Below, one piece after another: positions 35,808 through 64,000 of a DNA stretch of 64,000 nucleotides; position 1 is the stretch's first letter; every line of letters starts with the position of its first letter. The DNA comes from Eubacterium sp. (GTDB lineage Bacteria > Bacillota > Clostridia > Lachnospirales > Lachnospiraceae). The notes under the pieces were generated by a model, which made no database searches, was not told where the DNA came from, and worked only from the letters and a program-made list of their open reading frames with translations. The position numbers were made by a program, and so were the translations under genes. Where the stretch lies: contig JAFRWY010000020.1 of the NCBI GenBank assembly GCA_017437905.1, forward strand, positions 7,632 through 71,631, in the 5' to 3' direction.

Positions 35808-36632
35808 ATGAAGAAAGAAGTGAGTGAGGTTCTGATGAACCTTCTGATCAGACTGGATGAGGTATGCCGCCGGCATCACCTCCGTTATTATCTGGCCTAT
35901 GGCACCTGCATCGGCGCCGTCCGCCATAAGGGCTTTATCCCCTGGGATCATGACATTGATGTGCTGATGCCCATCCGGGATGCGGTGGAACTGACGAAAT
36001 ATCAGGATGAGTTCGGACCGGACCTCTTTGTGCAGTCCCGGAAGACGGATCCGAATTATATCTCCATCGCCTATAAACTCCGTGATTCCAGCACGGCTTA
36101 TGTCTGGGACGAATATAAGCATATGGATTTTAACCAGGGTATCTCCCTGGACATCTATCCCTTCTACAATGCACCGAAGACGAAGCCGGGGCTTCTGCTG
36201 AATATATGGAGATCCCATATCTATAAGGTACTGGTTGCCGGGTATGTCCCCGAGAACCACGGGAAGGCGGCGAAACTGATGTCGAAGTTCTTCCTGACCC
36301 TGTTCCGGGGGAAGAGCCGCGGAAAAATGATCCGCCGCATGGAGTATAAGCTCCGTAAGGTGCCGAAAGGGAAGGAAATCCTGGATTACTACGGCCTGGA
36401 TATCACCCTCTGCAGCGCCATCACCTATCCGAGAGAGTGGTTCGGAAAGCCGAAACTCCTGGAATTCGAGGGGAGAAAGTTCTTCGGTCCCACGGAACCG
36501 GAGAAGTATCTGACGAAGCGATACGGCGATTTCATGACGCTGCCGCCGGTGGAGAAGCAGGTGGATCCGAACCAGGATGCAGACGTGGTGATCGATACGG
36601 AGAAAAGCTACAGGGAGTATCTGGAGCTTTAG
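35808..36632 (+). CDS. LicD-family phosphotransferase (phosphocholine / phospho-alditol transferase family)
   Basis: YLAYGTCIGAVRHKGFIPWDHDIDVLMP with the conserved DxD, about 270 aa. Confidence 0.85.
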   Translation: MKKEVSEVLMNLLIRLDEVCRRHHLRYYLAYGTCIGAVRHKGFIPWDHDIDVLMPIRDAVELTKYQDEFGPDLFVQSRKTDPNYISIAYKLRDSSTAYVWDEYKHMDFNQGISLDIYPFYNAPKTKPGLLLNIWRSHIYKVLVAGYVPENHGKAAKLMSKFFLTLFRGKSRGKMIRRMEYKLRKVPKGKEILDYYGLDITLCSAITYPREWFGKPKLLEFEGRKFFGPTEPEKYLTKRYGDFMTLPPVEKQVDPNQDADVVIDTEKSYREYLEL

Positions 36633-41977: not shown

Positions 41978-42074
41978 TAGTCGGGTGAAAAGTGAGGGCG
42001 ATACTGATCACGATGCGGAAAGATGAGGGGGTCATCCGGCATCAGTTTTATGGGAAAGTATGAGGTACCGGCCT

Positions 42075-43169: not shown

Positions 43170-43254
43170 CGGACGCAGGGTTTTCGTAAAGATAGTCCGG
43201 ACGGATGATCCGGAACGGTAAGGGAAACAGGTTTTTTTGATCAGGAGGTATGGA

Positions 43255-47190: not shown

Positions 47191-47207
47191 TAAGGACTAA
47201 GTGACCG

Positions 47208-47238
47208 GCAGGAGCGGGAGACCGCTCCTGCTTTTTTT
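47208..47238 (+). terminator. Strong Rho-independent terminator ending the module A / surface-protein transcription unit
   Basis: GCAGGAGCGG - GAGA - CCGCTCCTGC followed by TTTTTTT. Confidence 0.85.
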
Positions 47239-47259: not shown

Positions 47260-47268
47260 TGCTATAAT
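47260..47268 (+). promoter_or_regulatory. Extended -10 promoter element for module B operon
   Basis: TGcTATAAT at 47260-68, directly after the terminator and about 100 nt before the first module B gene. Confidence 0.4.
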
Positions 47269-48736: not shown

Positions 48737-50062
48737 ATGGGAGACATGAAGTCAGAACTGCTGAAGAAGATTGAGGACCGCACCCTGGTTGCAGGTGTTG
48801 TGGGACTCGGGTCTGTGGGACTGCCCCTGGCCGTTGAGAAGGCCAAGGCGGGCTTTACCACCATCGGCTTTGACGTGCAGAGCGCCAAGGTGGATATGGT
48901 AAATGCAGGCCATAACTACATCGGGGATGTGGTGGATTCGGATCTGGAGAAGCTGGTAAAGGAAGGAAAACTCCGGGCAACCTCCGATTTTTCCTTCATC
49001 GGGGATGTGGATTTTATCGCCATCTGTGTTCCGACACCGCTGGACAGCCATCAGGAGCCGGACATCAGTTATGTCAGGGATTCCACCATCGCCATTTCAA
49101 AGCATCTGAAGAAGGGAACCATGGTGGTCCTGGAATCCACCACCTATCCGGGAACCACGGAGGAGCTGATCAAACCGCTTCTGGAGGAAGGCAGCGGCCT
49201 TACCTGCGGGGAGGATTTCTATCTGGGCTTCTCACCGGAACGTGTGGATCCGGGCAATCTCATTTATAAAACAAAGAACACCCCGAAGGTGGTGGGTGCG
49301 ATCTCAAAGGATGGAGGAGAGGTGATCTCCGCCATGTACCGTGCGGTACTGGAGGGGGATGTCTTCACGGTATCTTCCCCCGCTGTCGCGGAAATGGAGA
49401 AGATCCTGGAGAATACCTACCGGAATATCAATATCGGCCTGATCAACGAGATCGGTCGCCTCTGCCATGAGATGGGCATTTCCGTCTGGGAGGTGATCGA
49501 TGCGGCGAAGACCAAGCCTTACGGCTTTCAGGCCTTCTATCCGGGTCCGGGTCTCGGCGGACACTGCATCCCGCTGGATCCGTATTATCTTACCTGGAAG
49601 GCGAGAGAGTACGGCTTCCATACCACGCTGATCGAGAACAGCATGGTGATAAACGACGGACAGCCTGAGTACTGTGTGGACCGGGCCATGCACATCCTGA
49701 ACCGTCACAAAAAGGCGATCAACGGTGCGAAGGTGCTGCAGCTGGGTGTGTCCTACAAGAATGATATCGATGATTACCGGGAGAGTCCGGCCATCCGCGT
49801 AATGAAGGAACTCCGGAAGGTGGGAGCGGAAGTGGATTACTACGATCCCTGGGTTCCGGAATTTAAGAATATGTACGGAGAGAGCGGGAAGTCGATCCCG
49901 GAGCTTACTCCCGAGGTGGTGGCACGGTATGATCTGGTGATGATCACCACGGCACATCATAATGTGGACTATCAGATGGTGCAGAAGTCCGCACAGGCGA
50001 TCTTTGATACCAAGAACGTTATGAAGGACATCACACCGAGAGACAATATCGAAGTACTGTAG
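48737..50062 (+). CDS. UDP-N-acetyl-hexosamine 6-dehydrogenase (WbpA/WecC/TviB family nucleotide-sugar dehydrogenase)
   Basis: N-terminal VAGVVGLGSVGLPLA Rossmann motif, catalytic region GGHCIPLDPYYL and a C-terminal UDP-binding domain. Confidence 0.8.
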   Translation: MGDMKSELLKKIEDRTLVAGVVGLGSVGLPLAVEKAKAGFTTIGFDVQSAKVDMVNAGHNYIGDVVDSDLEKLVKEGKLRATSDFSFIGDVDFIAICVPTPLDSHQEPDISYVRDSTIAISKHLKKGTMVVLESTTYPGTTEELIKPLLEEGSGLTCGEDFYLGFSPERVDPGNLIYKTKNTPKVVGAISKDGGEVISAMYRAVLEGDVFTVSSPAVAEMEKILENTYRNINIGLINEIGRLCHEMGISVWEVIDAAKTKPYGFQAFYPGPGLGGHCIPLDPYYLTWKAREYGFHTTLIENSMVINDGQPEYCVDRAMHILNRHKKAINGAKVLQLGVSYKNDIDDYRESPAIRVMKELRKVGAEVDYYDPWVPEFKNMYGESGKSIPELTPEVVARYDLVMITTAHHNVDYQMVQKSAQAIFDTKNVMKDITPRDNIEVL

Positions 50063-50079: not shown

Positions 50080-51162
50080 ATGCGTTATGCACTGATCGGC
50101 TGCGGCCGCATTTCAACGAATCATATCAAGGCAGCCATGAACAATCAGCTGGAGATCGTAGCTGTCGTGGACATTATCCCGGAGCATATGGAAGAGGTCC
50201 TTTCGAAGAACGGTCTGGAGAAGGATGCATCCATAGCAAGATATACGGACTATGTGAAGATGCTGGAGGAGCAAAAACCCGAGCTTGTCAGTATCGCAAC
50301 GGAGAGCGGATCCCATGCGGGGATCGCCCTGGATGCGATCGACCGGGGGATCCCCGTGATCATCGAGAAGCCCATGGCCATGTCCATGGCGGATGCGGAG
50401 GAGATCATCCGAAGGTCGAAGGAGAAGGGGGTGAAGGTATCCGCCTGTCATCAGAACCGGTTCAATATCGCCGTGCAGAAGATGCGCCGGGCCCTGGAGG
50501 CCGGACGTTTCGGGAAGCTTTCCCACGGATCCATCCACGTACGCTGGAACCGGAACAAGGCCTACTATGATCAGGCACCCTGGAGAGGAACCTGGGCGGA
50601 GGACGGCGGAACCCTGATGAATCAGTGCATTCACGGCATCGATTTGCTCCGCTGGACCTTCGGGGATGAGGTGGAGGAGGTCTACGGTGCCACCCGTCAG
50701 GTGCAGCATCCCTACCTGGAGGCAGAGGATGTGGGCATGGCAGTGGTAAAGTTTAAGAACGGCGCCATCGCCACCATCGAGGGGACGGTAAATGTGTATC
50801 CGAAGAATCTGGAGGAGACCCTGTACATTTTCGGGGAGAACGGAACCGTGAAGATCGGAGGCACCTCCACGAATAATATCGATGTCTGGGATTTCGCGGA
50901 TGAGACGGATCAGGATGCAGAGAATAAGGGATTGAAGGAGGCTACCAGCAATGTCTACGGAAACGGACATACCAGCCTCTTTCGGGATATGATCGAAGCC
51001 ATCGAACAGGACAGGGATCCGTATGTGGATGCCGTGGCAGGCCGGAACGCATTGGAGCTGGTGCTTGCGATCTACAAGAGCCGGAAGGAGGGTCTTCCGG
51101 TGAGACTGCCACTTACGGACTTTTCCACGCTGGATATGCAGGGAACCTTTGACGAAAAATGA
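50080..51162 (+). CDS. Gfo/Idh/MocA-family oxidoreductase, candidate UDP-GlcNAcA 3-dehydrogenase (WbpB/WlbA role)
   Basis: MRYALIGCGRISTNHIKA Rossmann start and an EKP motif (VIIEKPMA). The functional call rests on the flanking WbpA-, WbpD- and WbpE-like genes. Confidence 0.6.
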   Translation: MRYALIGCGRISTNHIKAAMNNQLEIVAVVDIIPEHMEEVLSKNGLEKDASIARYTDYVKMLEEQKPELVSIATESGSHAGIALDAIDRGIPVIIEKPMAMSMADAEEIIRRSKEKGVKVSACHQNRFNIAVQKMRRALEAGRFGKLSHGSIHVRWNRNKAYYDQAPWRGTWAEDGGTLMNQCIHGIDLLRWTFGDEVEEVYGATRQVQHPYLEAEDVGMAVVKFKNGAIATIEGTVNVYPKNLEETLYIFGENGTVKIGGTSTNNIDVWDFADETDQDAENKGLKEATSNVYGNGHTSLFRDMIEAIEQDRDPYVDAVAGRNALELVLAIYKSRKEGLPVRLPLTDFSTLDMQGTFDEK

Positions 51163-51244: not shown

Positions 51245-51781
51245 ATGGGACAGGAAGAGAAGTCTTATTTTGTACATGAGAGCAGTTACGTGGATGAAGG
51301 CGCCATCATCGGTGAAGGAACAAAGATCTGGCATTTCTGCCACATCCAGTCCGGCGCGGTGATCGGAAAGAACTGCTCCCTCGGCCAGAATGTAAATGTG
51401 GCCGGCGGTGCCGTGATCGGTGACCGCTGCAAACTGCAGAACAATGTATCGGTTTATGAGGGCGTGATCCTGGAGGACGGCGTCTTCTGCGGGCCGTCCT
51501 GTGTCTTTACGAATGATCTTACCCCGCGGGCAGAGTATCCGAAGGGCAGGGCGAATTATAAGAAGACGGTGGTACGGAGCGGAGCCTCCATCGGGGCGAA
51601 TGCCACCATCGTCTGCGGCAATACACTTGGAAAATGCGCACTTGTGGCGGCCGGAGCCGTGGTTACGGATGATGTTCCGGACTATACGCTGGTGGCAGGA
51701 GTTCCCGCCCGTGTGGTGGGACGCGTGGATGAACACGGAAATGTAGTGGAGTGGTACAGGGATGATCATAAGATGGAGTGA
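51245..51781 (+). CDS. Left-handed beta-helix N-acetyltransferase (WbpD/WlbB-like)
   Basis: IWHFCHIQSGAVIGKNCSLGQNVNV...KLQNNVSVYEGVILEDGVFCGPSCVFTND...GVPARVVG is almost collinear with Bordetella WlbB as I recall it. Confidence 0.8.
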   Translation: MGQEEKSYFVHESSYVDEGAIIGEGTKIWHFCHIQSGAVIGKNCSLGQNVNVAGGAVIGDRCKLQNNVSVYEGVILEDGVFCGPSCVFTNDLTPRAEYPKGRANYKKTVVRSGASIGANATIVCGNTLGKCALVAAGAVVTDDVPDYTLVAGVPARVVGRVDEHGNVVEWYRDDHKME

Positions 51782-52454
51782 ACTTCCGGAGACACTCAGA
51801 CGTCCGGAGGTAAAAAAGTATTATAAGCGTCTCTACAGGAGGAGAGGAAGTCTTCTCATCAAGCGGGGCTTTGATATTGCGGCATCCCTGATCATGATCC
51901 TTCTTCTTGCACCGGTGATGCTGGGGGTCGCCGTATGGATCAAGCTGGATTCCAAGGGACCGGTCTTCTTCCGGCAGGAACGGATCACGCAGTACGGAAG
52001 AAGGTTCCGGATCTTCAAGTTCCGGACCATGGTGGCGGATGCGGAACAGCTGGGCACCCTGGTTACGGTGGAGGAGGATCCCAGGATCACGAAAGTGGGA
52101 AAGAAGATCCGCTCCAAACGGCTGGATGAGCTGCCACAGCTCTTTAATATCCTGGCAGGAGACATGACCTTCGTGGGAACCCGTCCGGAGGTGCTGAAAT
52201 ATGTAGAATACTACCGGCCGGAATGGATGGCGACACTGCTGCTTCCCGCGGGAGTCACATCCAGTGCCAGTGTGGCATATAAGGATGAGGACGCAGTCAT
52301 GCAGAACTATCGGGAGAAGGGATATTCCGTGGATGAGATCTATACGCGGTATATCCTGCCGGAGAAGATGCGTTACAATCTTGAAGAACTCAGGTCCTTC
52401 AGTCTTTGGCATGATATGAAGATCCTGGTACGGACCGTACTTGCGGTCATCTGA
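51762..52454 (+). CDS. Second small undecaprenyl-phosphate sugar phosphotransferase (Bac_transf family)
   Basis: RITQYGRRFRIFKFRTM and DELPQLFNILAGDMTFVGTRPE. It overlaps the upstream gene by 20 nt. Confidence 0.88.
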   Translation: MIIRWSELPETLRRPEVKKYYKRLYRRRGSLLIKRGFDIAASLIMILLLAPVMLGVAVWIKLDSKGPVFFRQERITQYGRRFRIFKFRTMVADAEQLGTLVTVEEDPRITKVGKKIRSKRLDELPQLFNILAGDMTFVGTRPEVLKYVEYYRPEWMATLLLPAGVTSSASVAYKDEDAVMQNYREKGYSVDEIYTRYILPEKMRYNLEELRSFSLWHDMKILVRTVLAVI

Positions 52455-52482
52455 ACGACGAAGGAACCTTAGGAGGATGGAA

Positions 52483-53964
52483 ATGGAAAAGAGAAGCATA
52501 GGTATTAAGAAGATCCTGATCGACTGCGTCCGGTTCTGGTTTCTGCTGGTCCTTTTTGCCGGGGCCGGTGCATTTCTCGGTTACAGGGGAACTCTCTCCT
52601 ATAACCAGGGCATCGACAAGCAGATAAAGGAGAATGAGAAGAAACAGCAGGAAGAACTGGAAGCACAGATGGAACTTACAAAGGATATCGTGGAGGAGAA
52701 GACCTTCACGAAGGAGGAATGTGAGAAGGGGCTTTCCAAGTCGGCCATGAAGGATGTGCAGGAGGCATACCACTGGTACCAGGAGAAGGAGAAACGCCGG
52801 GATTATCTGGAGACATCTCCGTATCTGCAGCTGGATCCCTACAATGTCACGGCTTCTTATCTGCAGTTCCGGGTGAACTATGACGGTGAGAGTGTGGATG
52901 AACTTGATTTTGCATCCTATGTCCATGCACTGAAGAACTATGTGAATTACAACGGACTGGTGGATGATCTGCAGGGAGAGATAGAGACGACCTCCCGTGA
53001 TCTGTCAGAACTGATTTCCTTTGGAGACGGCGGTAAGGATTCCTATGACCGGATCGTACTGATCACTGTGATCCATTCTTCCATTACCGAGGATCTGATC
53101 GACCATATCGGAAAGGCATTTTTGGCATACGGCAATAAGCTTTCGGACACATACCCCGGTTTCTCCGTGGAGAAGATGTCCACCTATCAGGCAAACTATT
53201 ATCACAGCGGTCTGAATTCTTCCATTGAGTCCCAGCGGGCGGCACTGATCTCCGATCAGAACCGTGTGGACAATGCAGTGAAGAAGCTGACCAGCATGCA
53301 GCTGGCTTACTATAATATGCTGATCAACGGCACGGATAAGGAGACTGTGGAGGAGGTCATCCCGGAAGGCGCCACCTCCAAGCGGAAGGCAACCACGGAG
53401 ATTGAAGTCCCCTCAAAGCGCCGGATCCTTCCCATGATGATCCTCGGGGCCGTGGGTGGCTGTATCCTTGCGGTGGTTCTGATCTTCTTCGGAAATCTGC
53501 TCAGCGGAAAGCTCCTGTTCGAGAAGGATCTGACATCAATCTACGGACTTCGTTCCTACGGCGTCCTTCGGGAGAAGGAAAAGAAAGGAATTGCAGGGTT
53601 CCTGCAGCGGGCGGAATATCCGGGAGCGGAACCGGCGGATTCTCCGGCCATGCTGTATCTGCAGCTGAAAGAAGCGGTGGGTGCTTCGGAGAGTAAGGAA
53701 GCCATCCTGATCAGCAGCTCCAAGCTGGGAGAGACGGAAGGCGTGAAGAAACTTGTGGAACTGGCAAAGAAGGACGGCATCGCATTTTCCGTAAAGGATT
53801 CCTTCATCGGAGATCTCTCCGCGGCAGAGGAAGTATTGAAGGGACACCCGGTCTTTATGGTGGAGCAGCTTCACGGTTCAAGACTTTCAAAGGTAGACAG
53901 GATCGCAGCATTCTGTAAGGAGAATAAGGTACAGATCCTGGGAGGAATCTGCGTGGATGCATAG
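52483..53964 (+). CDS. Second PCP (Wzz)-like protein with a degenerate kinase-like tail, paralogous in architecture to 39085..40479
   Basis: TM1 (FWFLLVLFAGAGAFLGY), a helical ectodomain of about 300 aa, TM2 (ILPMMILGAVGGCILAVVLIFF), then a tail whose P-loop position reads LISSSKLGETEGVKK. ATG 52483 is 6 nt after GGAGG. Confidence 0.45.
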   Translation: MEKRSIGIKKILIDCVRFWFLLVLFAGAGAFLGYRGTLSYNQGIDKQIKENEKKQQEELEAQMELTKDIVEEKTFTKEECEKGLSKSAMKDVQEAYHWYQEKEKRRDYLETSPYLQLDPYNVTASYLQFRVNYDGESVDELDFASYVHALKNYVNYNGLVDDLQGEIETTSRDLSELISFGDGGKDSYDRIVLITVIHSSITEDLIDHIGKAFLAYGNKLSDTYPGFSVEKMSTYQANYYHSGLNSSIESQRAALISDQNRVDNAVKKLTSMQLAYYNMLINGTDKETVEEVIPEGATSKRKATTEIEVPSKRRILPMMILGAVGGCILAVVLIFFGNLLSGKLLFEKDLTSIYGLRSYGVLREKEKKGIAGFLQRAEYPGAEPADSPAMLYLQLKEAVGASESKEAILISSSKLGETEGVKKLVELAKKDGIAFSVKDSFIGDLSAAEEVLKGHPVFMVEQLHGSRLSKVDRIAAFCKENKVQILGGICVDA

Positions 53965-53996: not shown

Positions 53997-56462
53997 ATGC
54001 GGAAAAGATTTGAAAGAGCAAAAGGCGGTATTCTGGCGGCCGGTCTGGTCGCAGTAATGGGTTGCGGGGTCCCGGCCATGGCGGCGGAATCCGGCAAAGC
54101 AACGGAAGACTTCGTTCTGGAGGAAAACGCCGTACTTACGGATGCAACCGGAACCGGGGAGTCAGAAGAAGATGCAGAGATCACAGGAACGCTGCAGGAC
54201 GGTGCCGTTCTGTATGCTGCCCGGGAGGAAGACACGATTCTGGATGATACGGATCCGGAGGAAGGCGATCCGGAGGAGATCACGGCCGGATTCTTCCAGG
54301 GTGAAGATGGGAATACCTACTACCGGGATGAGGAAGGAACGATCCTTACCGCTGTCATCGTGACCGTGGAGGAGAAGAATTATTACCTGGGTGAAACGGG
54401 AATCCTGCTTAAGTCCGGTGCAGTTCTCTATGACGGCGTGATCTACCGTGCGAACAAGAACGGTGTTCTTTCGGTAAAGTCCGGCTGGGTGGAGATCGAC
54501 GGGAACTGGTATTTTACCACAGTGGAGGGTGTTCCGAAGAAGAGTACCTGGATCAGCGGGAAATACTATATGGATGAGGACGGCATTATGCTGTCGGATA
54601 CGCTCCTTGAATGGAAGGAGAATCTGTATTACCTCGGAACGGACGGGGAAGTGCGGGTTTCGGCCGGCCCCCAGAAATGCGGCGGCGCCTGGTATCTGGT
54701 GGGAGAAGGCGGAGAGATCTACCGGGGAGAACTGGTGGAACTGGACGGGACCATGTATCTGGCTTCTGCGGACGGAACGCTTTTTACCAGCCAGATCGTA
54801 TTTATCGAAGATGAAATGTATTATTATGCCGGTGCGAACGGTGCCTTCCGCACCAAGGCCGGATGGGTCGAGTATGCCGGCGACTGGTATTATCTTGACG
54901 CGGACGGACGCGCAAGATGCAATGCCACTGCAACGGATGCGAAGAAGGTGAAGTATTATCTCGGGGATGACGGAAAGATGGTGAAGAGTGAGATCATCGT
55001 CATCGATGAGGTGATGTATTATGCCGGTGCAAACGGTGCCATTCGCGCAAAACGCGGCTGGCTTAAGATCGGTAACGACTGGTATTTTACGGAGACGGAC
55101 GGTTCCTTCCGAAGAAACCAGTTCGTGGTGGTATCCAGTAAGGAAATGTATTACATGGATGACGTGGGGAAAATGGTCACCAGCACGATCATCATGTATC
55201 AGGATGTCCTCTATTACATCGATGCCGACGGACGGGTGAAGATGAATAAGGGATGGATGAAGATCAAGGGAAGCTGGTACTATGCCATCGGCGACGGAAA
55301 ACTGATGCGAAATGAGATCCTGGAATACAAGGGAAAGCAGTATTTCCTGGGAGATGACGGTCGCATGATCGTCGGTGACGGTGTTGTTACACAGACGAAG
55401 GGATATCTGGCGGATCAGGACGGCGTCCTGACCCCGGCCACCGGCTGGTTCCAATCGGGAGGACTCTGGTATCGCGCAGATAAGAATTCCACACTGTACA
55501 AGGATGTATTTGTTACTGTCGGCGGAAAAGAGTATTATCTCGACATTTTCGGCGTCATGCAGGATAACAACTTCTTCTACTACGGAAGTGATCTCCTGTT
55601 CGCGAAGAAGGGCGGACAGATCCGTAGGACCGGCGGCTGGATGAAGTACAACGAGCACTGGTATTACTCCAATGCCAAGGGCGTATTCTTCCGCGGCGTT
55701 GAGAAGAAGATAAACGGTGTTCGGTATTACTTTAAGGACGACGGAAGTATGCGGGAGAACGCCGAGTATTACTTTACGGGCATCATTCATGATACTGCAT
55801 GGACGGAGATCAACGGTAAGCGGTATCATCTGGATGCAAACGGAAGAGTGGATTCCTGGTTCGGCATCGACATTTCCGGATATCAGGATATCATTGACTG
55901 GGATAAGGTCAAGGCGGACGGCGTGGACTTTGCATTTATCCGTGTCGGCGGACGATTCATGGCTTCCGGTGAGATCTACGACGATAGCAAGGCACTTCGG
56001 AATCTTGCGGAGGCAAACCGGGTAGGCATTCCGGTGGGCGTATATTTCTTCTCACAGGCAATCACCATTGAAGAGGCAATCGAAGAAGCGGATTATGCAC
56101 TTGCGAAGATCCGGGGCTACAATGTGGAGCTGCCGGTGGTCATCGATACGGAGAACACCGACGGCGGACGTCAGAATTATATTACTGCCCAGCTGAGAAC
56201 GGATATCATCAAGGCCTTCTGTGAGCGTGTTGCAGAGGCCGGTTACAGCCCCATGTACTATGCGGGTATGGGATATTGTGTGGACGGCTATGTAAAATAT
56301 GAGCAGCTGTCCCAGTACATGCACTGGTGCGCGCAGTACTGGATCCGGAACCAGTGTGATGAGTACGGCGTGCCGTATCAGATCTGGCAGTACACGGAGA
56401 AAGGAAAGATCAACGGCATCCAGGGTGGCGTGGACTGCAATATCTGGTACAGAAACTATTAA
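53997..56462 (+). CDS. Secreted CW_binding_1 repeat protein with C-terminal GH25 muramidase (LytC-like architecture)
   Basis: Signal peptide, acidic linker and about 550 aa of repeats. The C-terminal domain has GIDISGYQDIIDWDKVKADGVDFAFIRVG ... VVIDTE ... IWQYT, the GH25 signature. Confidence 0.85.
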   Translation: MRKRFERAKGGILAAGLVAVMGCGVPAMAAESGKATEDFVLEENAVLTDATGTGESEEDAEITGTLQDGAVLYAAREEDTILDDTDPEEGDPEEITAGFFQGEDGNTYYRDEEGTILTAVIVTVEEKNYYLGETGILLKSGAVLYDGVIYRANKNGVLSVKSGWVEIDGNWYFTTVEGVPKKSTWISGKYYMDEDGIMLSDTLLEWKENLYYLGTDGEVRVSAGPQKCGGAWYLVGEGGEIYRGELVELDGTMYLASADGTLFTSQIVFIEDEMYYYAGANGAFRTKAGWVEYAGDWYYLDADGRARCNATATDAKKVKYYLGDDGKMVKSEIIVIDEVMYYAGANGAIRAKRGWLKIGNDWYFTETDGSFRRNQFVVVSSKEMYYMDDVGKMVTSTIIMYQDVLYYIDADGRVKMNKGWMKIKGSWYYAIGDGKLMRNEILEYKGKQYFLGDDGRMIVGDGVVTQTKGYLADQDGVLTPATGWFQSGGLWYRADKNSTLYKDVFVTVGGKEYYLDIFGVMQDNNFFYYGSDLLFAKKGGQIRRTGGWMKYNEHWYYSNAKGVFFRGVEKKINGVRYYFKDDGSMRENAEYYFTGIIHDTAWTEINGKRYHLDANGRVDSWFGIDISGYQDIIDWDKVKADGVDFAFIRVGGRFMASGEIYDDSKALRNLAEANRVGIPVGVYFFSQAITIEEAIEEADYALAKIRGYNVELPVVIDTENTDGGRQNYITAQLRTDIIKAFCERVAEAGYSPMYYAGMGYCVDGYVKYEQLSQYMHWCAQYWIRNQCDEYGVPYQIWQYTEKGKINGIQGGVDCNIWYRNY

Positions 56463-56501
56463 AACCGTCCTGTTTCGGGGACGAGGTGACTGAGGGAAAC
56501 T

Positions 56502-59465
56502 ATGCGTAAATTCGTGAAATGGTCAATCCGGCTGATTCTTCTCGGAGCATTTGTCATGCATTGCTCCGGGGAGGCGTATGCCGATACGCCGGATACGTAT
56601 CCGGAAGTGGCGGAGTCGGTCCTGTCCGGTGAGAAGGAATATCAGGGCCTGATTTTACAAATGAATTTCGGAACGGATGATATTGTGACCGGCCCGGCGG
56701 ATGATGCCGCGGAGGATACTACAGGCGGACCGGCGGATGACACCACGGACGAAATGGCAGGCGGTCCCGCGGGTTTTGCCGGGGATGACACGGCAGGCGG
56801 TCCCGCGGACGGTATTACAGGCGGCCCCGCGGACGACATCACGGCTGACACAACAGGCGGACCGGCAGATGATACCATGGCCGGTTCTTCTGATACACTG
56901 ACAAATGACCGGACAGAAGATCTTTCGAAGGATCCCGCAGACGATCAGACCGATCATCTGGCGGCTGCATCAGCAGACCATACGACGGACGAGATGGCGG
57001 ATGATCCCGAGGATGACCTGAAGGATGATCCCGAAGGCGATCTTTCGGATGATTCCGAACCGGAAGCCACCATCGGAAAACTGGGGACTTCGGTATTTGA
57101 ATCCGGAAACCGGATCTGGTTTTACAATGTGGCCGGCGGTCTGACCAACGCGGAATTTATCATAGTGGAATCAGACGGTCACTGGGGGATCATCGATGCG
57201 GGTCACCGGTATTCGCCGGAACCATTGGTGGATTCGGACGGGACGGAATATGAGGTCCCATTTTATTATGAGGACGGAACCCTGGCGGCCTTTTCCGTAC
57301 AGGCGGAAGGCAGAAACGGAAGGGATGCGGCACTTTACATGATCGAGACACTGGGTGTGTCTCATTTGGATTTTATTATCGGAACGCATGGGCATTCCGA
57401 TCACAGCGGCGGAATTCCGGACGTGGCGGGGCTCCTGGTAGAGGATGAGGATGGCATTCATCCCTTTGTGGATGAACAGACGGTCTATATTCATAAGAAA
57501 TATCAGCATGTAGGTCCGCTGAATGACGATTTGGGAGAAGAGAAGAACGAGCAGTCCTGGCACAATCAGGCCTTTGTTTATCAGGCAGAGAAGACCGTTG
57601 CGGATCAGGGTGGTCAGGTAGTGGATATCAGTCACGGACTGATCACCGGAAATGTCATGCGCGAAGCCGAGCAGGAGGAAATGGACTACAGTGAGATCCT
57701 GGCAGGGATCGAAGCCGGGGCGGGAATCTCCAACGTGGTATATGACCAGCGGGAACTGAATGATTATTTTGATGATTACATCGAATTTCAGTTTGGGGAT
57801 TTCAATATCCGGCTTTACAATCTGTATTCGATCTATAAACCCTCGGATGAGAACACAAACTGTATTGTGACGGTGATCTCCGATGGGAAAAATGCATTTT
57901 ATTCCGGCGCGGATCTGGATGCTACGTATCTGGTACAGCAGCGTGTGGCAAATGCGGTCTATGCGGACTACGGGCATATCGATATGGTGAAGACCCATCA
58001 TCACGGTGTTGTGGTTGCAAATACCAAGGAGTTTCTGGACCTCTTCCAGCCGTCGGTATCCATCAACGCTTCCTGGAGAAGTATATCCGACATCATGGCG
58101 AACAGCTATGCAGCGGGTATTCACTATTCGAAGAAGCATTATGGAACCGTATATTATGAGGTGGGTTCCTCTGACAAGGGACTTGTGGTTGAGTTCGGGG
58201 AAGAAGGACTGGAGTTAAAGCAGCTTTTCAACGAAGGCGCGGAGGCTTCCTTCGGTTCGCCGGAGAACTGCATCAATCAGTCACCCGTTCAGGAAGGATG
58301 GGCGGAGTGGATCACCGGAAAATACGCCGGAACCCTGAATGATTTCTTATATTTTATTGAAAATGAGCCGGTGACCGGATGGATGGAACTGGAGGAAGGA
58401 ACCTTCTTCTTCGATGAAGACGGTTTTATGTTCCGGGGCTGGCTGGAGGATCAGGGGGAGACCTACTTCTTCAGGAATGACGGAACCATGTTCACCGGCT
58501 GGAAGAAGGTGGAGGACGGATATTTTTATTTCAATCCGGAGACCGGTGCTTCCGTTCACGGCTGGGTGGCGGATGATACCGGAACCTATTTTCTTCTGCT
58601 GACACAGCAGCTGTTGACCGGCTTCCATATGATCGACGGGGAAGGATACTATTTCCGTGAGAACGGAGCCATGAAAACCGGCTGGGTACAGACGGAGGAC
58701 GGCTGGCGGTTTTTTGATGAATTTGGACGGATGATGGACGGACTGACCGGCATCGATGGGAAGACGTATTACCTTGAGAACGGTGTACTCACCACCGGCT
58801 GGGCCGAGGTGGAAGGTTCCACCTACTGGATCGGATCTGACGGTGCGGTAGCCACCGGCTGGCAGCGGATCGGCAGCGGAATCTATTATTTCGGAGAAGA
58901 CGGATGCATGGTTACCGGGTGGTTCCGCGTTGACGGAACCTGGTTCCACAGTACGGAGTCCGGCAGACGGGAAGACGGCTGGTTTACGGACGAAAGCGGA
59001 ACCTATTATCTGGATGGTGAATACGGCCTGCAGAAGGGCTGGCTGTCTCTCGGGGAGAATACCTATTATCTCGGGACCTCCGGGAAGATGGTCACCGGAT
59101 GGAAGTATCTGGCCGGCGACTGGCATTTCTTCAATGAGAAGGGTGTTATGGTAAAGGGCTGGTTCCGGACAGGCGGAGCATGGTACTTTGCCGACCGGGG
59201 AGGCTGCATGAGGACTGGCTGGCAGAAACTGGGAACGCGGTGGTATTTCTTCCGCTCCGATGGACGCATGAAGACCGGATGGATCCGGTCGGAGGGGCAA
59301 TGGTTGTATCTGAATGAAACGGACGGTTTCGTGACCACCGGCTGGAAACAGATCGGAGAGGACTGGTACTATTTTGAAAAGAGCGGCTTCATGGTGACAG
59401 GAAGCCAGACCATTAACGGAAAGACCTGGGAGTTCCGGGCGGACGGAACCCTGATTCAGGAATAA
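56502..59465 (+). CDS. Secreted metallo-beta-lactamase-fold hydrolase with C-terminal CW_binding_1 repeats (Pce/CbpE-like architecture)
   Basis: Signal peptide and a GGPADD-type acidic repeat linker. The MBL core has FIIVESDGHWGIIDAG, IIGTHGHSDHSGG and MVKTHHHG. About 400 aa of repeats follow (GWMELEEGTFFFDEDGFMFRGW ...). Confidence 0.8.
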   Translation: MRKFVKWSIRLILLGAFVMHCSGEAYADTPDTYPEVAESVLSGEKEYQGLILQMNFGTDDIVTGPADDAAEDTTGGPADDTTDEMAGGPAGFAGDDTAGGPADGITGGPADDITADTTGGPADDTMAGSSDTLTNDRTEDLSKDPADDQTDHLAAASADHTTDEMADDPEDDLKDDPEGDLSDDSEPEATIGKLGTSVFESGNRIWFYNVAGGLTNAEFIIVESDGHWGIIDAGHRYSPEPLVDSDGTEYEVPFYYEDGTLAAFSVQAEGRNGRDAALYMIETLGVSHLDFIIGTHGHSDHSGGIPDVAGLLVEDEDGIHPFVDEQTVYIHKKYQHVGPLNDDLGEEKNEQSWHNQAFVYQAEKTVADQGGQVVDISHGLITGNVMREAEQEEMDYSEILAGIEAGAGISNVVYDQRELNDYFDDYIEFQFGDFNIRLYNLYSIYKPSDENTNCIVTVISDGKNAFYSGADLDATYLVQQRVANAVYADYGHIDMVKTHHHGVVVANTKEFLDLFQPSVSINASWRSISDIMANSYAAGIHYSKKHYGTVYYEVGSSDKGLVVEFGEEGLELKQLFNEGAEASFGSPENCINQSPVQEGWAEWITGKYAGTLNDFLYFIENEPVTGWMELEEGTFFFDEDGFMFRGWLEDQGETYFFRNDGTMFTGWKKVEDGYFYFNPETGASVHGWVADDTGTYFLLLTQQLLTGFHMIDGEGYYFRENGAMKTGWVQTEDGWRFFDEFGRMMDGLTGIDGKTYYLENGVLTTGWAEVEGSTYWIGSDGAVATGWQRIGSGIYYFGEDGCMVTGWFRVDGTWFHSTESGRREDGWFTDESGTYYLDGEYGLQKGWLSLGENTYYLGTSGKMVTGWKYLAGDWHFFNEKGVMVKGWFRTGGAWYFADRGGCMRTGWQKLGTRWYFFRSDGRMKTGWIRSEGQWLYLNETDGFVTTGWKQIGEDWYYFEKSGFMVTGSQTINGKTWEFRADGTLIQE
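56688..56885 (+). repeat. In-frame GGPADD-type acidic repeat tract
   Basis: TGPADDAAEDTTGGPADDTTDEMAGGPAGFAGDDTAGGPADGITGGPADDITADTTGGPADDTMAG, followed by further Asp-rich sequence to about 57070. Confidence 0.9.
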
Positions 59466-59484: not shown

Positions 59485-60612
59485 ATGGAATTTCGTGATC
59501 TGAGAAGACAATATGAGATACTGAAGGAAGGAATCGATCAGCGGATCGAAGATGTAATTACATCGAGCAGGTTTATATCCGGCCCGGAGGTAAAGGAACT
59601 GGAGCAGGCGCTGGCAGACTATACGGGAACCGGGTACTGTGTCGCCTGTGCAAACGGGACAGACGCACTGACGCTGGCATGTATGGTCTGGCAGGTGGGC
59701 CCAGGGGATGCGGTGTTCGTTCCGGATTTCACATTCTTCTCCAGCGGAGAATCTCCGGCTGCCCTGGGTGCCCATGTGGTATTTGTGGATGTGGAGCCGG
59801 ATACCTTCAATATGGATCCGGATCGTCTGGAACAGGCGGTTCTGGAAGTGGAACGGGAAGGAAAGTACCGCCCGAAGGTGGTTGTGGCAGTGGATCTCTT
59901 CGGACAGCCGGCCGATATGGACCGGATCCGTCCGATCTGTGACAGGTACGGGATGTATCTGCTGGAGGACGGGGCCCAGGGCTTTGGCGGTGAGATCCGC
60001 GGGAAAAAGGCCTGCAGTTTCGGGGACATCTCCACCACCAGCTTCTTCCCTGCAAAGCCGCTGGGCTGCTACGGAGACGGCGGAGCCATATTTACCGATC
60101 GTGCAGAGTGGGCGGACCTGCTCCGGAGTTACTGCGTGCACGGAAAGAGTCCTGTCAGCAAGTATGACAATCTCCGCCTGGGCATGAACAGCCGGCTGGA
60201 TACGTTACAGGCAGCGATCCTGCTTCCGAAGCTGGAGGCATTTCGTTCCGGTGAGGTCGAAGCCGTGAACCTGGTGGCAGACTGGTACCGTGAAGCATTT
60301 GCCGGATCGGAGCTTATCCTGCCCACCGTAAAGGAAGGGTACCTCAGCAGTTGGGCACAGTATACGGTTCAGCTCCCGGAGGGTACGGACCGTGATGCTG
60401 TACAGCAGAGAATGAAAGAGGCGGGAATTCCCACCATGGTATATTATATGAAGCCCATGCATCTGCAGGGGGCATTTGCGGGAACGGGAAGTGAGAAGGC
60501 AGACTGTCCGGTGACGGAGCGGCTCTGCAAATGTGTTCTCAGTCTTCCCATGCACCCGTATATGACAAAGGAAGAAGCGGAAACGGTAGCAAAGGAGCTT
60601 TTGAAGCAGTGA
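59485..60612 (+). CDS. DegT-family PLP aminotransferase (WbpE/WlbC-like)
   Basis: The N-terminus FRDLRRQYEILKEGIDQRIEDVITSSRFISGPEVKELEQALADYTGTGYCVACANGTDAL is collinear with P. aeruginosa WbpE. The Lys context is TTSFFPAKPLGCYGDGGA. Confidence 0.85.
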   Translation: MEFRDLRRQYEILKEGIDQRIEDVITSSRFISGPEVKELEQALADYTGTGYCVACANGTDALTLACMVWQVGPGDAVFVPDFTFFSSGESPAALGAHVVFVDVEPDTFNMDPDRLEQAVLEVEREGKYRPKVVVAVDLFGQPADMDRIRPICDRYGMYLLEDGAQGFGGEIRGKKACSFGDISTTSFFPAKPLGCYGDGGAIFTDRAEWADLLRSYCVHGKSPVSKYDNLRLGMNSRLDTLQAAILLPKLEAFRSGEVEAVNLVADWYREAFAGSELILPTVKEGYLSSWAQYTVQLPEGTDRDAVQQRMKEAGIPTMVYYMKPMHLQGAFAGTGSEKADCPVTERLCKCVLSLPMHPYMTKEEAETVAKELLKQ

Positions 60613-61997
60613 GACAACAGGCTCGTCTCAGAATGGTGATGGCGTCGCTGCTGATCCTGGCATCCGCCATACCGAATCTGGGAAATGAATTGAATATTTT
60701 AGGCTCGTTCCTGAATTTCTACCGGCTGATGGTGGTCTTTCTGGCCATGATCACGCTGATCGTTTTTCGGGGAGAGCTTCGGATCACGGAGCGGCGCAGC
60801 TTTCTTCTGTGGATGGGATTCCTCAGCTGCTGGCTTTTCTACGGGGTCCTTCTTTTGCTGCTGTCTCCCTATGCGGAGGCGGAGCGGGGAACCAGGGAGC
60901 TTTTCTCCATCCTCTGCGGTCTGCTCAGCTTCTATATTCTATCGAACCTGAAGCTTTCGGAACGGGAGATCGAGAGCGTCTTCCGGGTGATGTTCTGGGT
61001 TCTGGCGGCCATGCTGGTGCTCGGAGCCTGGGAGATCATTACCGGAAACCATCTTTCCTCTTCGATGTTCAATGATCCTGCGAATGAGGTGGCGTGGCGT
61101 GTGGATACCCATTCCGCTACGGGCTTCCTTTACAATGTCAATGATTATTCGGCCCTGATCACCCTGATGCTTCCTGTGGTGGTTGGAAGATACCGGATCG
61201 TATTCCGGAGAGGATATCTGGATCCCGGCTGGTTCCTGATCATCGCAACGGCGGTGATCAACCGTGTGAACGATGCCAATTTCTGCAACGCGGCGCTGGT
61301 GGTAGGTGTGTTTACCTATATTCTCCTGCATATGGGAGGAGACCGGCGGCGGAAAGGCTGGGTGCTGGTGGCAGCCACCGTGCTCCTGACGGGTCTTTTG
61401 GTAATGTATTTCCTGAATGACGGGGAAAGTGAAAATGTGGTCTCCCGGACCATGGATCTGGTCTCCAGAAGTGCCGAAGGAACCGGCTCCCTTCATTCCA
61501 GACTTCTGATCTACCGGGATGCGCTTTCCGCCGGCTGGTTGTCAGGCTTCCTCGGTATGGGTCCCGGCGGGTTCTCTCTTTATTATACAGAGAATCCTTC
61601 CGATTCGGGCTTTATCAACCCCCACAGTCTGCTGCTGGAGATCTTCTCCGAATACGGACTGATCATTGTGCTGCTGTTCATAGTCCTTCTTGTCCTGCTG
61701 TTCCGGAACATGCACCGGATCTTCCTTGTATCCAAGGATCCGACAAGGAGAGTGTGGGGACAGACGGGTATGATCTGGATCATAACATATCTGATCGTGT
61801 CCTTTGCTTCCAGCAATTATCTGCCGAACTCCTTCCACTGGACCCTTCTGGCGCTGATCTGCCTGATGAAGGAAACCATACGGGAGGAAGAACCGGAGAT
61901 TTTTGCCCGTGAATTTGAGAAGAAGGAGAGTTACGCAAATGAAGGTCTGTCATATAACCAGCGCGCATCCGCAGGAGGATATCCGGATATTCCATAA
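60609..61997 (+). CDS. Second Wzy / O-antigen-ligase-family polytopic membrane protein
   Basis: About 10-12 TM helices and NPHSLLLEIFSEYGLIIVLLFIVLL (Wzy_C-like). GTG 60609 (GTGA overlap with the upstream stop, AAGGAG 11 nt upstream) or ATG 60633 are both possible starts. The tracked ATG 60531 is unlikely. Confidence 0.65.
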   Translation: MRQQARLRMVMASLLILASAIPNLGNELNILGSFLNFYRLMVVFLAMITLIVFRGELRITERRSFLLWMGFLSCWLFYGVLLLLLSPYAEAERGTRELFSILCGLLSFYILSNLKLSEREIESVFRVMFWVLAAMLVLGAWEIITGNHLSSSMFNDPANEVAWRVDTHSATGFLYNVNDYSALITLMLPVVVGRYRIVFRRGYLDPGWFLIIATAVINRVNDANFCNAALVVGVFTYILLHMGGDRRRKGWVLVAATVLLTGLLVMYFLNDGESENVVSRTMDLVSRSAEGTGSLHSRLLIYRDALSAGWLSGFLGMGPGGFSLYYTENPSDSGFINPHSLLLEIFSEYGLIIVLLFIVLLVLLFRNMHRIFLVSKDPTRRVWGQTGMIWIITYLIVSFASSNYLPNSFHWTLLALICLMKETIREEEPEIFAREFEKKESYANEGLSYNQRASAGGYPDIP

Positions 61998-63000
61998 GGA
62001 ATGTGTGACCCTGGCAGAGGGCGGACACAGGACCTACCAGGTATCCTGTGGAACCTTATATAAGAAGAACGGTGTCCGCATGGCAGGGTTCGGGGATGCT
62101 GCCTCCGGCAGGCTGGGACGTATGCTTGGTACGGCGCGGAAAGCATACCGGATGGCCCTGAAGGTGGACGCGGAGGTGTATCATTTCCATGATCCCGAGC
62201 TTCTTCCCTACGGACTGAAGCTGAAGCGGAAGGGGAAGAAGGTGATCTTCGACAGCCATGAGGATGTTCCGGGACAGATCCTGGACAAGACATGGATCCC
62301 GGCACCGCTCAGGAAGATCATTTCCGGTTTGTACCGGAAATATGAAACCCATGTGGTAAAGCATCTGGACGCAGTGGTTGCGGCAACGCCCCATATCGCG
62401 GAGAAATTCGAGGGCCGGGCGAAGAAGGTGGTTGTTGTAAATAATTTCCCGAATCTGGATGATATCCGTTTCCAGAAGGCGCCATTTGCAGGAAGAGAAG
62501 CCCTGGTCTGCTATGCCGGCGGGATCGATGAAAACCGCGGCGAGAGCATTATGAAGCACGCCATGGAGGGGGTTCCCGGGGAACTGGTGATCGCGGGGGA
62601 TCATCCGGAAGAAAAGCAGGAAAATGTGACCTATGTGGGCCGTCTGGACCGGGACGGCGTCAATGATCTGTACGGTCGTTCCGTGGCAGGACTCTGCATC
62701 CTGAAACCCATTGAAAATTATTACTATTCCCAGCCGATCAAAATGTATGAATACATGGCGGCGGGCCTTCCCTTTATCTGCTCGGATTTTCCGGGCTGGA
62801 GGAAGGTGGCCGAGGAAAGCGGCGGCGGCATCCTGGTGGATCCCACGGACAATGACGGGATCCGCTCTGCGATCACGGGTCTTCTTACGGACCGGGAGAA
62901 GGCGGAACGTATGGGACGCAAGGGCCGCGACTATGTTGTTGCAAACTGTACATGGGAGAATGAGGCGAAGACACTGCTCCGCCTGTATGAGGAATTATGA
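61939..63000 (+). CDS. GT4-family glycosyltransferase
   Basis: MKVCHITSAHPQEDIRIFHKEC N-terminus and a GT-B C-terminal half with the YSQPIKMYEYMAAGLPFICSD (E-x7-E-like) region. AGGAGAG lies 9 nt upstream. Confidence 0.8.
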   Translation: MKVCHITSAHPQEDIRIFHKECVTLAEGGHRTYQVSCGTLYKKNGVRMAGFGDAASGRLGRMLGTARKAYRMALKVDAEVYHFHDPELLPYGLKLKRKGKKVIFDSHEDVPGQILDKTWIPAPLRKIISGLYRKYETHVVKHLDAVVAATPHIAEKFEGRAKKVVVVNNFPNLDDIRFQKAPFAGREALVCYAGGIDENRGESIMKHAMEGVPGELVIAGDHPEEKQENVTYVGRLDRDGVNDLYGRSVAGLCILKPIENYYYSQPIKMYEYMAAGLPFICSDFPGWRKVAEESGGGILVDPTDNDGIRSAITGLLTDREKAERMGRKGRDYVVANCTWENEAKTLLRLYEEL

Positions 63001-64000
63001 AAGTACTGATTGTATCCAGAGGAATTCCGACAAAACAAAATCCCCTTCTCGGAAGCTTTGAGTGGGATCAGGCCAGGGCGCTCTGCAAAGCGGGGCACCA
63101 GGTGACCTTCTTTGCACTGGATCTTCGTTCGATTCGAAGGAAGAGAAGCTTCGGTATCTTTCAGAGGGAGACCGACGGGATGCGGATATTTGTTCACTCG
63201 CTGCCGGTAGGAGCCATTCCGCCGGCGCTGTTTGTAAAGGCGGGTGAGAGAGCTCTGCTTTCTCTTTATAAAAGAGCATTTCGCGCCGGTGACCGTCCGG
63301 ATGTGGTCCATGCACATTTTACGGATATGGGCTGCATCGCCTCGGTATTAAAGCGGAAAAAATCTCTTCCGCTTGTGATCACGGAGCATTCCTCGATCAT
63401 GGGACGGGAGGAAGTACCGGAGAGTACCCTGCGGATGGCGAAGAAGGGATATGCCGCGGCAGATTGTCTGATCGCCGTCAGCGGTGAACTTTCGGCAAAG
63501 ATCCTGCAGCATACCGGCATGGAGAGCCGGGTGATCCAGAATATCATCGATCCGGAAGTTTTTCTTAAGTGTCCGAAACAGGAACATACGGGTTTCCGGT
63601 TTATCTCCGTGTCCAATCTGATCCCCAGGAAGCGGATCGGTCTTTTGATCGATGCCTTCGCACGGGTCCGGAGGAATGCACCGGAGGCATGTCTGGATAT
63701 TGTCGGAGACGGTGAAGAGCGGGCAATGCTGGAGGAGAAGGTAACGTCCTACGGGCTTACGGATGCGGTTTCCTTTGCGGGAGGCCTGCCCAGGCCGGAG
63801 GTCGCAGAGCATCTTGCGGCAGCGGATGCTTTCGTGCTTCCCTCGGAACTGGAGACATTCGGTGTGGTATATGCCGAAGCCATGATGGCCGGACTTCCGG
63901 TGATCGCGACTACCTGCGGAGGACCGCAGGATTTTGTAAAGGATTTTACAGGACTTCTGGGTGCGTATGATACGGAGGAGACCCTGGCGGAGGCCATGGA
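62997..64000 (+). CDS. GT4-family glycosyltransferase, 3' end beyond the window (absent from the ORF track because no stop is reached)
   Basis: My own translation from ATG 62997 (ATGA overlap with the upstream stop) is open to nt 64000. It reads MKVLIVSRGIPTKQNPLLGSFEWDQARAL...VVHAHFTD...LPSELETFGVVYAEAMMAGLPVIATTCGGPQDF, with the EX7E motif. Confidence 0.8.
   Translation, partial: MKVLIVSRGIPTKQNPLLGSFEWDQARALCKAGHQVTFFALDLRSIRRKRSFGIFQRETDGMRIFVHSLPVGAIPPALFVKAGERALLSLYKRAFRAGDRPDVVHAHFTDMGCIASVLKRKKSLPLVITEHSSIMGREEVPESTLRMAKKGYAAADCLIAVSGELSAKILQHTGMESRVIQNIIDPEVFLKCPKQEHTGFRFISVSNLIPRKRIGLLIDAFARVRRNAPEACLDIVGDGEERAMLEEKVTSYGLTDAVSFAGGLPRPEVAEHLAAADAFVLPSELETFGVVYAEAMMAGLPVIATTCGGPQDFVKDFTGLLGAYDTEETLAEAM

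Follow-up and report, generated by a model that had tools for sequence, protein, structure and literature searches.

The stretch of DNA analyzed here (64,000 nucleotides of Eubacterium sp., assembly GCA_017437905.1, contig JAFRWY010000020.1, positions 7,632 to 71,631; hereafter the window) raises the question of what two adjacent genes for secreted proteins are doing among the genes of a polysaccharide operon. Both products carry the name 'hypothetical protein' in GenBank (MBR0145460.1 and MBR0145461.1). A preliminary description, made from the sequence without database searches, had called the first protein LytC-like and the second Pce-like. We consider it probable that the two are a LytC-type muramidase and a phosphodiesterase of the Pce lineage, held on the wall by cell wall-binding (CWB) repeats and made together with the products of the operon, the phosphodiesterase most likely trimming phosphocholine or a related phospho-alcohol from a teichoic-acid-like polymer. 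Both reading frames lie on the + strand exactly where they had been placed, and the motifs reported in them (GIDISGYQ, VVIDTE, HGHSDHSGG and THHHG) are all found in the translations. Our reading of sequence and domains also agrees with the preliminary description on the signal peptides, the repeats, the C-terminal glycoside hydrolase family 25 (GH25) domain of the first protein, and the acidic linker and metallo-β-lactamase (MBL) core of the second (Table 1).

In the second protein, the single MBL-type Pfam match was Lactamase_B_2 and lay below threshold (E 0.0036; 17 bits, the cut-off being 27), and the MBL core would consequently escape routine annotation. When the domain alone (residues 189–603) was searched, the sole significant relative of solved structure was the catalytic module of Pce/CbpE (12qj, 1wra and 2bib; E 1.7e-18 to 2.8e-17), and the next match was ComEC, at E 0.017. 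A model of the domain built with AlphaFold (AF2) on 11 family sequences (pLDDT 81.7, pTM 0.88) was compared with solved structures by Foldseek. Ranks 1–3 were Pce (2bib/1wra; E 1.4e-17, target-normalised TM 0.76) and ComEC was the second-best structure. On the profile of the family, streptococcal CbpE, a cluster identified by its name, scored about 120 bits, versus 13 bits for the MBL domain of the ComEC protein encoded in the window.

The putative metal site pointed in the same direction. Pce residues H85, H87, D89, H90, N183, D203 and H229 align to H296, H298, D300, H301, N451, D471 and H500/501 of the window protein, and each of these seven positions is kept in 143–153 of 156 relatives. The Pce residue numbers were counted along the chain printed in the sequence alignment, and we take H85, D89, H90 and N183 to be ligands from the MBL motif and from the Pce structure. 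The other three, H87, D203 and H229, have been named as metal ligands (PMC2916828). By sequence, the MBL domain and the catalytic module of Pce/CbpE are homologous, and the label Pce-like stands by sequence, by fold and by the ligands kept.

The likeness to Pce/CbpE (2BIB, 1WRA) extends to the order of the modules, namely signal peptide, N-terminal MBL catalytic module and C-terminal CWB repeats, and, as judged by eye from the sequences, to the segment joining the catalytic module to the repeats, which aligns in both proteins. The two are only about 22% identical, however, and the window protein has a 160-residue acidic linker between signal peptide and catalytic domain. Its gene is embedded in a polysaccharide operon, whereas pce stands alone. 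The linker consists of GGPADD-type units, encoded partly by tandem DNA repeats of 36 and 24 nucleotides. Its length is highly variable among orthologues, in which the MBL domain starts anywhere from residue 62 to residue 242, and its ratio of non-synonymous to synonymous substitution rates (dN/dS), calculated against a metagenome contig of 93% nucleotide identity, was 0.53, indicating relaxed constraint.

In the first protein, the GH25 domain scored 106 bits in Pfam against a cut-off of 27, and the repeats N-terminal to it matched Choline_bind_1, Choline_bind_2 and Choline_bind_3 (E 1e-23 to 8e-14). Among solved structures the best sequence match of the domain was LytC (2ww5/2wwd, E 1.1e-16), as the earlier label had it. 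The Asp of the IDIS motif and the D-x-E pair align with the catalytic residues of LytC, with IDIS/IDTEN here opposite IDIS/YDVEN there. Against the 93% identical contig (L063), the dN/dS of the gene ranged from 0.02 in the catalytic domain to 0.17, and the gene is thus under purifying selection. These features suggest a LytC-type muramidase, an activity that we infer from the sequence. As in LytC, the repeat module is N-terminal and the GH25 domain C-terminal, with the catalytic Asp and Glu positions aligned. In contrast to LytC, whose repeat module has about half the length, the module here is built of super-repeats of about 65 residues, in which only some units retain the aromatic signature; the protein has an acidic N-terminal stretch, and its gene lies within an operon.

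The position of the pair is conserved. The order PCP-like (polysaccharide co-polymerase-like), CWB-GH25, MBL-CWB and WbpE-like, with the same tight spacing, was found in RUG10588 (L006) and in the isolate Lachnospiraceae bacterium AC2029 (L009). The sequences of RUG14162 (L007) and of a metaWRAP metagenome-assembled genome (L008) start within the GH25 gene and show the same order from there on. The metagenome contig of 93% nucleotide identity holds the PCP-like gene, the CWB-GH25 gene and the start of the MBL gene, and then ends. Between the window and the syntenic genomes, the sugar-nucleotide enzymes are 73–95% identical and the GH25 domain 66–88%, the MBL domain 50–55%, the Wzy polymerase 46–61%, and the PCP-like protein 55% (AC2029) and 76% (RUG10588). 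Among the loci compared, the pairing of a GH25 with an MBL gene is confined to the clade of the window. The embedding of the pair in a polysaccharide operon, proposed in the preliminary description, is supported by this conserved gene order.

The WbpB-like and WbpD-like genes of RUG10588 are separated by a Wzy-like gene and some 2.6 kb of additional sequence (L006 533–4511); the biosynthetic part has therefore been rearranged there, while the block from the PCP-like to the WbpE-like gene is kept. A metagenome scan revealed no ancestral 'empty' operon, in which the PCP-like gene would be followed directly by the WbpE-like gene, among the two relatives that it yielded; one of these carries the pair, with the MBL gene cut by the contig end, and the other ends within the PCP-like gene.

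All genes from 47370 to the end of the window lie on the + strand. The gaps between the PCP-like, GH25, MBL and WbpE-like genes measured 32, 39 and 19 nucleotides, each one fewer than the 33, 40 and 20 given before. The accompanying claim that the gaps hold no terminator was borne out: + strand terminator-like sites were absent from the three gaps and, except for one at 63913, from the whole region between 47232 and the window end. The exception lies inside the last GT4 glycosyltransferase gene and is not the end of the operon. The 39-nucleotide gap contains only a 5-bp hairpin without a T run, and a GGAGG-type ribosome-binding site precedes each of the three genes downstream of the PCP-like gene. 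Internal promoter-like sites at 53287 and 55867 were not more frequent than expected by chance, and no Rfam match was found in 26–64 kb at E≤0.1. A consensus promoter scan omitted the extended -10 element upstream of the first gene because its -35 element is weak. The pair would on these grounds be co-transcribed with the polysaccharide genes. Since the WbpE-like gene lies downstream of the pair and the WbpA-, WbpB- and WbpD-like genes lie upstream, the pair is placed inside a functional unit.

Table 1. The two proteins, the operon that encloses them and the upstream features that bear on them. Positions are nucleotides of the window unless marked aa (amino acid residues).
Feature	Position	Strand	Size, evidence or remark
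Secreted CWB-repeat and GH25 muramidase (putative), LytC-type architecture	53997..56462	+	821 aa
Signal peptide of GH25 protein	aa 1-29	+	cleavage AMA/A after residue 29; read from sequence
Acidic stretch of GH25 protein	aa 30-100	+	
CWB repeats of GH25 protein	aa ~101-610	+	~500 aa; Choline_bind_1/2/3, Pfam
GH25 domain	aa 624-808, 55866-56420	+	Pfam E 2.9e-30
Secreted Pce-type MBL phosphodiesterase (predicted) with CWB repeats	56502..59465	+	987 aa
Signal peptide of MBL protein	56502-56582	+	cleavage AYA/D after residue 27; read from sequence
Acidic linker of MBL protein	56583-57065, aa 28-188	+	net charge -43
MBL domain	57066-58310, aa 189-603	+	HGHSDH at 57387-57404
CWB repeats of MBL protein	58311-59462	+	384 aa; Choline_bind_3 E 5.7e-53 (Pfam)
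LicD-family phosphotransferase, candidate installer of a phospho-substituent	35808..36632	+	Pfam LicD E 2.9e-37; NCBIfam match sub-threshold
Intrinsic-terminator-like hairpin	47207..47232	+	strong, 11-bp stem then T run; ends upstream unit of CWB-protein genes
Extended -10 promoter-like element TGcTATAAT	47260..47268	+	read from sequence; ~100 nt 5' of first operon gene
GT4 glycosyltransferase, first operon gene	47370..48668	+	Pfam; 79.5% aa identity to AC2029 (L009) counterpart
WbpA-like UDP-N-acetyl-hexosamine 6-dehydrogenase	48737..50062	+	Pfam; NCBIfam TIGR03026
WbpB/WlbA-like 3-dehydrogenase, GFO/IDH/MocA family	50080..51162	+	PDB 3q2k/3q2i, E 7.6e-71
WbpD/WlbB-like hexapeptide N-acetyltransferase	51245..51781	+	PDB 3mqg, E 2.9e-55
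Small polyprenyl-phosphate glycosyl-phosphotransferase (Bac_transf)	51762..52454	+	Pfam E 8.5e-57
Wzc-fold polysaccharide co-polymerase-like (PCP-like) membrane protein	52441..53964	+	AF2 and Foldseek
WbpE-like aminotransferase	59485..60612	+	PDB WbpE 3nu7, E 5.2e-94
Wzy-type polymerase	60531..61997	+	Pfam Wzy_C, E 6e-12
GT4 glycosyltransferase	61903..63000	+	Pfam
Further GT4 glycosyltransferase, runs off window end	62997..64000	+	tblastn 62% to AC2029 (L009) glycosyltransferase

The four sugar-nucleotide enzymes presumably form the WbpA/WbpB/WbpE/WbpD route to UDP-2,3-diacetamido-2,3-dideoxy-hexuronic acid, in which the WbpE-like protein would be the third enzyme; the structures matched by the 3-dehydrogenase (3q2k/3q2i) we take to be those of WlbA. 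All four strongly match solved structures of this Wbp (WlbA-C) pathway, and the WbpE-like assignment of the downstream flank made earlier holds. The Wzx/Wzy/Wzc type of assembly is represented by the Wzy-type polymerase, the Wzc-fold co-polymerase, the small phosphoglycosyl transferase and the GT4 glycosyltransferases, with a flippase just past the window: a metagenome scaffold that encodes an identical GT4 protein (61939–63000) carries a Polysacc_synt flippase gene 3' of the last GT4 gene. Unlike known systems of this kind, the host here is Gram-positive and the pathway genes are split by two wall-hydrolase genes. The GT4 gene at 62997–64000 was missing from the list of open reading frames because it is open at the window end.

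The upstream neighbor of the pair had been described as PCP-like. At the level of fold this was upheld, as Wzc accounted for all of the top 28 Foldseek matches of its AF2 model (pLDDT 83.6); at the level of sequence it was not, as there was no Pfam or PDB match. The 13 homologues of the protein in the database are all 'hypothetical'. Its true start is probably 52483, and the GenBank product of 493 residues begins at M15. The C-terminal domain has the BY-kinase fold and, unlike that of Wzc, carries neither a Walker A motif nor a tyrosine tail. A paralogue at 39085–40479, 24% identical to the protein at 52441–53964, likewise has no Pfam or PDB sequence match, and both paralogues lie immediately 5' of genes for secreted CWB-repeat enzymes.

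The MBL domain belongs to a group that is set apart from Pce. In an exhaustive search by profile, 117 representative clusters were recovered at E≤1e-30, a number that rises to 1,204 when the threshold is relaxed to E≤1e-10. About 45 of 150 representatives among the matches listed, the window protein included, carry the signature SWHNQ. Where Pce reads LWDNL, SWH(N/T/S)Q is invariant in this subfamily, and Asp124 of Pce is replaced by His354. The spacing from HxHxDH to NxN is about 145 residues in the subfamily and 148 in the window protein, compared with 91 in Pce, so the signature of Pce proper (the LWDN helix start with a spacing of about 91) is lacking in the window protein. Inspection of the alignment and of the secondary structure of the model showed that most of the added residues belong to an excursion of a helix and a strand, about 50 residues long, that directly precedes the FQFGD strand; relative to Pce, it forms an insertion between this strand and the strand after the W-x-N helix.

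At least three CWB-type repeats follow the MBL domain in 39 of the 57 best-scoring proteins, and the matches in genomes come exclusively from Clostridia of the rumen or gut (Lachnospiraceae, Ruminococcaceae/Oscillospiraceae and 'Eubacterium' metagenome-assembled genomes). Pce and LytC themselves are known kinds of protein. The new elements are a Clostridia branch of the Pce lineage that stands apart by its signature, and the placement, conserved among genomes, of a Pce-like/LytC-like pair within a Wzy-type operon; neither is described in the titles and abstracts that a literature search returned. A word-indexed protein search with the MBL domain missed the window's own protein and its 90% cluster (8 members, present in the collection), and the low match counts of that search are consequently not to be taken as rarity.

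In the interpretation that we favor, the CWB repeats would hold both secreted enzymes on the wall non-covalently. The GH25 protein would act as an N-acetylmuramidase that cuts the glycan strands of peptidoglycan, and the MBL protein, as a binuclear-metal phosphodiesterase of the Pce lineage, would remove phosphocholine or a related phospho-alcohol from a teichoic-acid-like wall polymer. Such removal may tune the binding of the organism's many CWB proteins. If the pair is transcribed within the Wzx/Wzy-dependent polysaccharide operon, wall cutting and wall-polymer editing would be delivered together with the new surface polymer.

The choline part of this interpretation draws on the neighborhoods of relatives. 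The LicD gene of the window was confirmed by Pfam (Table 1), and its locus also holds CapD, a fused double aminotransferase and a second phosphoglycosyl transferase. Among 91 neighbors of more distant relatives, the commonest families were CWB repeats (14 proteins) and NTP_transf_3 (5), and two were BCCT transporters. In one locus (L022) the MBL-CWB gene is flanked on one side by a BCCT transporter and a fusion of a winged helix-turn-helix (wHTH) domain with LicC and LicA, and on the other by a 13-repeat CWB protein, an epimerase, IspD and three LicD genes. In another (L011), whose MBL domain is 44% identical to that of the window and groups next to the window's clade in a neighbor-joining tree without bootstrap, the MBL gene is directly followed by a LicC-LicA fusion, a BCCT transporter and a second cytidylyltransferase, and the next genes are orthologues of the CapD (52%) and double DegT (69%) genes of the locus upstream in our window. 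A BCCT gene lies within 10 kb of the relative in two further loci (L023 and L025), the second of which also has a LicC-like gene. Because relatives elsewhere adjoin BCCT, LicC-LicA and LicD genes, a LicD-type phospho-substituent gains indirect support as the target, and the function guessed at in the preliminary description is plausible and better supported than before. LicC-LicA fusions are very common in the database (7,934 of 8,000 scored candidates at E≤1e-20), and some of the matches are named CTP:phosphocholine cytidylyltransferase.

With the pneumococcal lic system (LicB/LicA/LicC/LicD), the organism shares a LicD gene in the window and many encoded CWB-repeat proteins, and the MBL relatives in other Clostridia share the adjoining LicC-LicA fusion and LicD, together with BCCT. 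It differs in that no choline activation genes were found in the window; in the other Clostridia the transporter is BCCT rather than LicB, and LicC and LicA are fused, with an N-terminal wHTH domain. The regions L022 5380–20213 and L011 1135–7497 may be noted in their own right as compact choline-decoration loci of uncultured rumen Clostridia. They comprise a BCCT transporter, a wHTH-LicC-LicA triple fusion, a Pce-like MBL-CWB gene and a CWB-only protein, and L022 has in addition IspD and epimerase (TarI/TarJ-like) genes and three LicD paralogues.

Several observations count against phosphocholine trimming. LicD lies 20 kb upstream in another transcription unit, closed by the terminator at 47207–47232, so that what had been described as one island is in fact two units; the pair's own operon has no phosphotransferase gene. 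Choline kinase (LicA), cytidylyltransferase (LicC) and BCCT/LicB are absent from the 64-kb window, and tblastn with the lic genes of L022 gave no match in the window or in the syntenic loci. Some relatives (P0002/L012, P0004/L005 and L018–L020) lie among housekeeping genes with no wall-polymer genes nearby, and a Pfam context scan found no lic genes in the neighborhoods of L018–L020. The matches of the CWB repeats include clostridial toxins and glucansucrases, whose repeats bind ligands other than choline. Finally, the substrate may differ from that of Pce, since SWHNQ replaces LWDNL beside the active-site helix and the HxHxDH–NxN spacing is longer.

So far, Pce and LytC have been described almost exclusively in pneumococci and closely related bacteria, in which they shape the display of surface proteins. 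The present data indicate a parallel system in rumen and gut Clostridia, and the matching location of the pair in related genomes points to wall remodelling being produced along with the polymer. The annotation of MBR0145460.1 and MBR0145461.1 can be improved now. Because the cultured relative AC2029 has the same arrangement, the coupling between polymer synthesis and wall editing becomes testable, as do the ligands of such repeats outside streptococci.

The main alternative is that the MBL enzyme has as its substrate the polymer made by the operon itself and not a phosphocholine decoration. It would then cleave the sugar-1-phosphate link to peptidoglycan or lipid, causing release or shedding, or a phosphodiester of the backbone, and the GH25 protein would open the wall for insertion of the polymer, so that the pair would serve as a dedicated module for maturation and turnover. 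The location of the pair, inside a biosynthetic operon and immediately after the gene of a Wzc-fold co-polymerase, fits this, and the paralogous PCP-like gene upstream (39085) also precedes CWB enzyme genes. The MBL domain has diverged to about the same extent as Wzy and, in AC2029, as the PCP-like protein, with the sugar-nucleotide genes far better conserved. This pace is what would be expected of an enzyme tracking polymer structure, but any surface-exposed protein is expected to diverge fast. The differences from Pce near the active site also agree with another substrate; the closest characterized enzyme is, however, an exo-acting phosphocholine esterase. The relatives, moreover, co-localise with genes for choline uptake and activation and not with one type of polymer, and many of them lie away from any polysaccharide locus. 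On balance we regard action on the operon's own polymer as rather unlikely.

It could also be that the pair are general housekeeping autolysins that landed in the operon in an ancestor of the clade, their position having no functional meaning beyond shared transcription. This would account for the restriction of the GH25-CWB/MBL pairing to the window's clade, for the many unrelated contexts of the MBL relatives and for the seven CWB-repeat proteins scattered over the 64-kb window, and pneumococcal pce and lytC are themselves stand-alone genes. Yet the arrangement has been kept in all syntenic genomes examined, despite an MBL identity of 50% and the rearrangement in L006, and the pair has been retained although it splits a four-enzyme pathway. 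There is also no terminator or clear promoter around the pair. A chance landing of this kind is therefore unlikely in our view.

A bolder idea, which we consider doubtful, is that the operon of this Lachnospiraceae clade is a self-contained cassette encoding both a surface polymer and the enzymes anchored to it and acting on it. The PF01473 repeats would then bind the operon's own acidic diacetamido-uronic-acid polymer instead of choline, and the Pce-like enzyme would be a phosphodiesterase specific for this polymer, which it would edit or release from the wall, and would co-evolve with Wzy and the co-polymerase. If true, this would give the Pce lineage a new substrate class and the 'choline-binding' repeats a new ligand. 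A similar arrangement is that of the PSII polymer locus of C. difficile, which adjoins cwp genes for CWB2-anchored proteins: genes for wall-anchored proteins are clustered there with genes for a wall polymer that is a possible ligand. The anchor in C. difficile is CWB2, whereas the window proteins have PF01473 repeats, for which the operon's polymer is a hypothetical ligand.

The preliminary description had left open an extracellular nuclease of the ComEC type, that is, a wall-anchored MBL protein degrading DNA. The ComEC domain has been modelled with Pce, its nearest structural match among solved proteins, as the template (PMC5031224), which speaks for this proposal to the extent that fold alone cannot tell the two apart; sequence, however, does separate them. 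The similarity to ComEC was marginal, both in the search of solved structures and on the family profile (E 0.017; 13 vs 120 bits), and the first motif of the window's ComEC is SHTDADH, as against HxHxDH in the MBL protein and in Pce. The MBL protein has no Competence (PF03772) or DUF4131 domain in Pfam, and a full ComEC gene, with DUF4131, Competence and MBL domains, is found elsewhere in the window (10180–12672). With the C-terminal domain of ComEC (9IC4), the MBL protein shares the MBL sub-fold and, in the latter half of the domain, the N, D and HH positions. It differs in having neither a Competence channel nor an OB-fold, in its first motif, and in being secreted and wall-anchored rather than membrane-embedded. 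A nuclease of this type is accordingly very improbable. The net charge of the catalytic domain (-45) is weak evidence in the same direction; as a means of telling esterase from nuclease, net charge was rejected, as the MBL domain of the window's ComEC is also acidic.

That the pair is the remnant of a prophage lysis cassette is scarcely credible: a search of phage records found endolysin relatives of the GH25 domain (100 records, at most 45% identity), but this is ordinary endolysin-level similarity, the MBL domain had no relatives in 50,697 phage records, no phage genes lie nearby (the flanks being biosynthetic genes on the same strand), the signal peptides and long repeat modules are typical of host autolysins, and the position is conserved in four other genomes and, in part, on one metagenome contig.

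Other parts of the window contain several features of note. The locus upstream of the operon (30400–47190) resembles a teichoic-acid pathway of the pneumococcal type, with a CapD/PglF-like dehydratase, aminotransferases, a small phosphoglycosyl transferase and LicD, and then continues with three secreted CWB-repeat proteins: one of a GH5 cellulase family (40541), one of the CAP/SCP type (42060) and one of 1,317 residues (43237), the N-terminal 690 residues of which have no family assignment. Within this locus, an open reading frame of 850 residues at 32409–34961 consists of two complete DegT-type aminotransferase modules fused to each other, a PseC-like followed by a LegC-like one; the orthologue found in L011 shares 69% identity with it over the portion covered. 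The protein encoded at 22903–24651 combines a flippase-like membrane domain (MatE/Polysacc_synt) with a C-terminal HATPase_c_2 domain of the anti-sigma-factor kinase type, which is an unusual combination. In the ComEC region (10180–14791), the comEC gene is followed after 35 nucleotides by the gene of a 694-residue protein that consists almost entirely of CWB repeats, with 13 Choline_bind_3 units.

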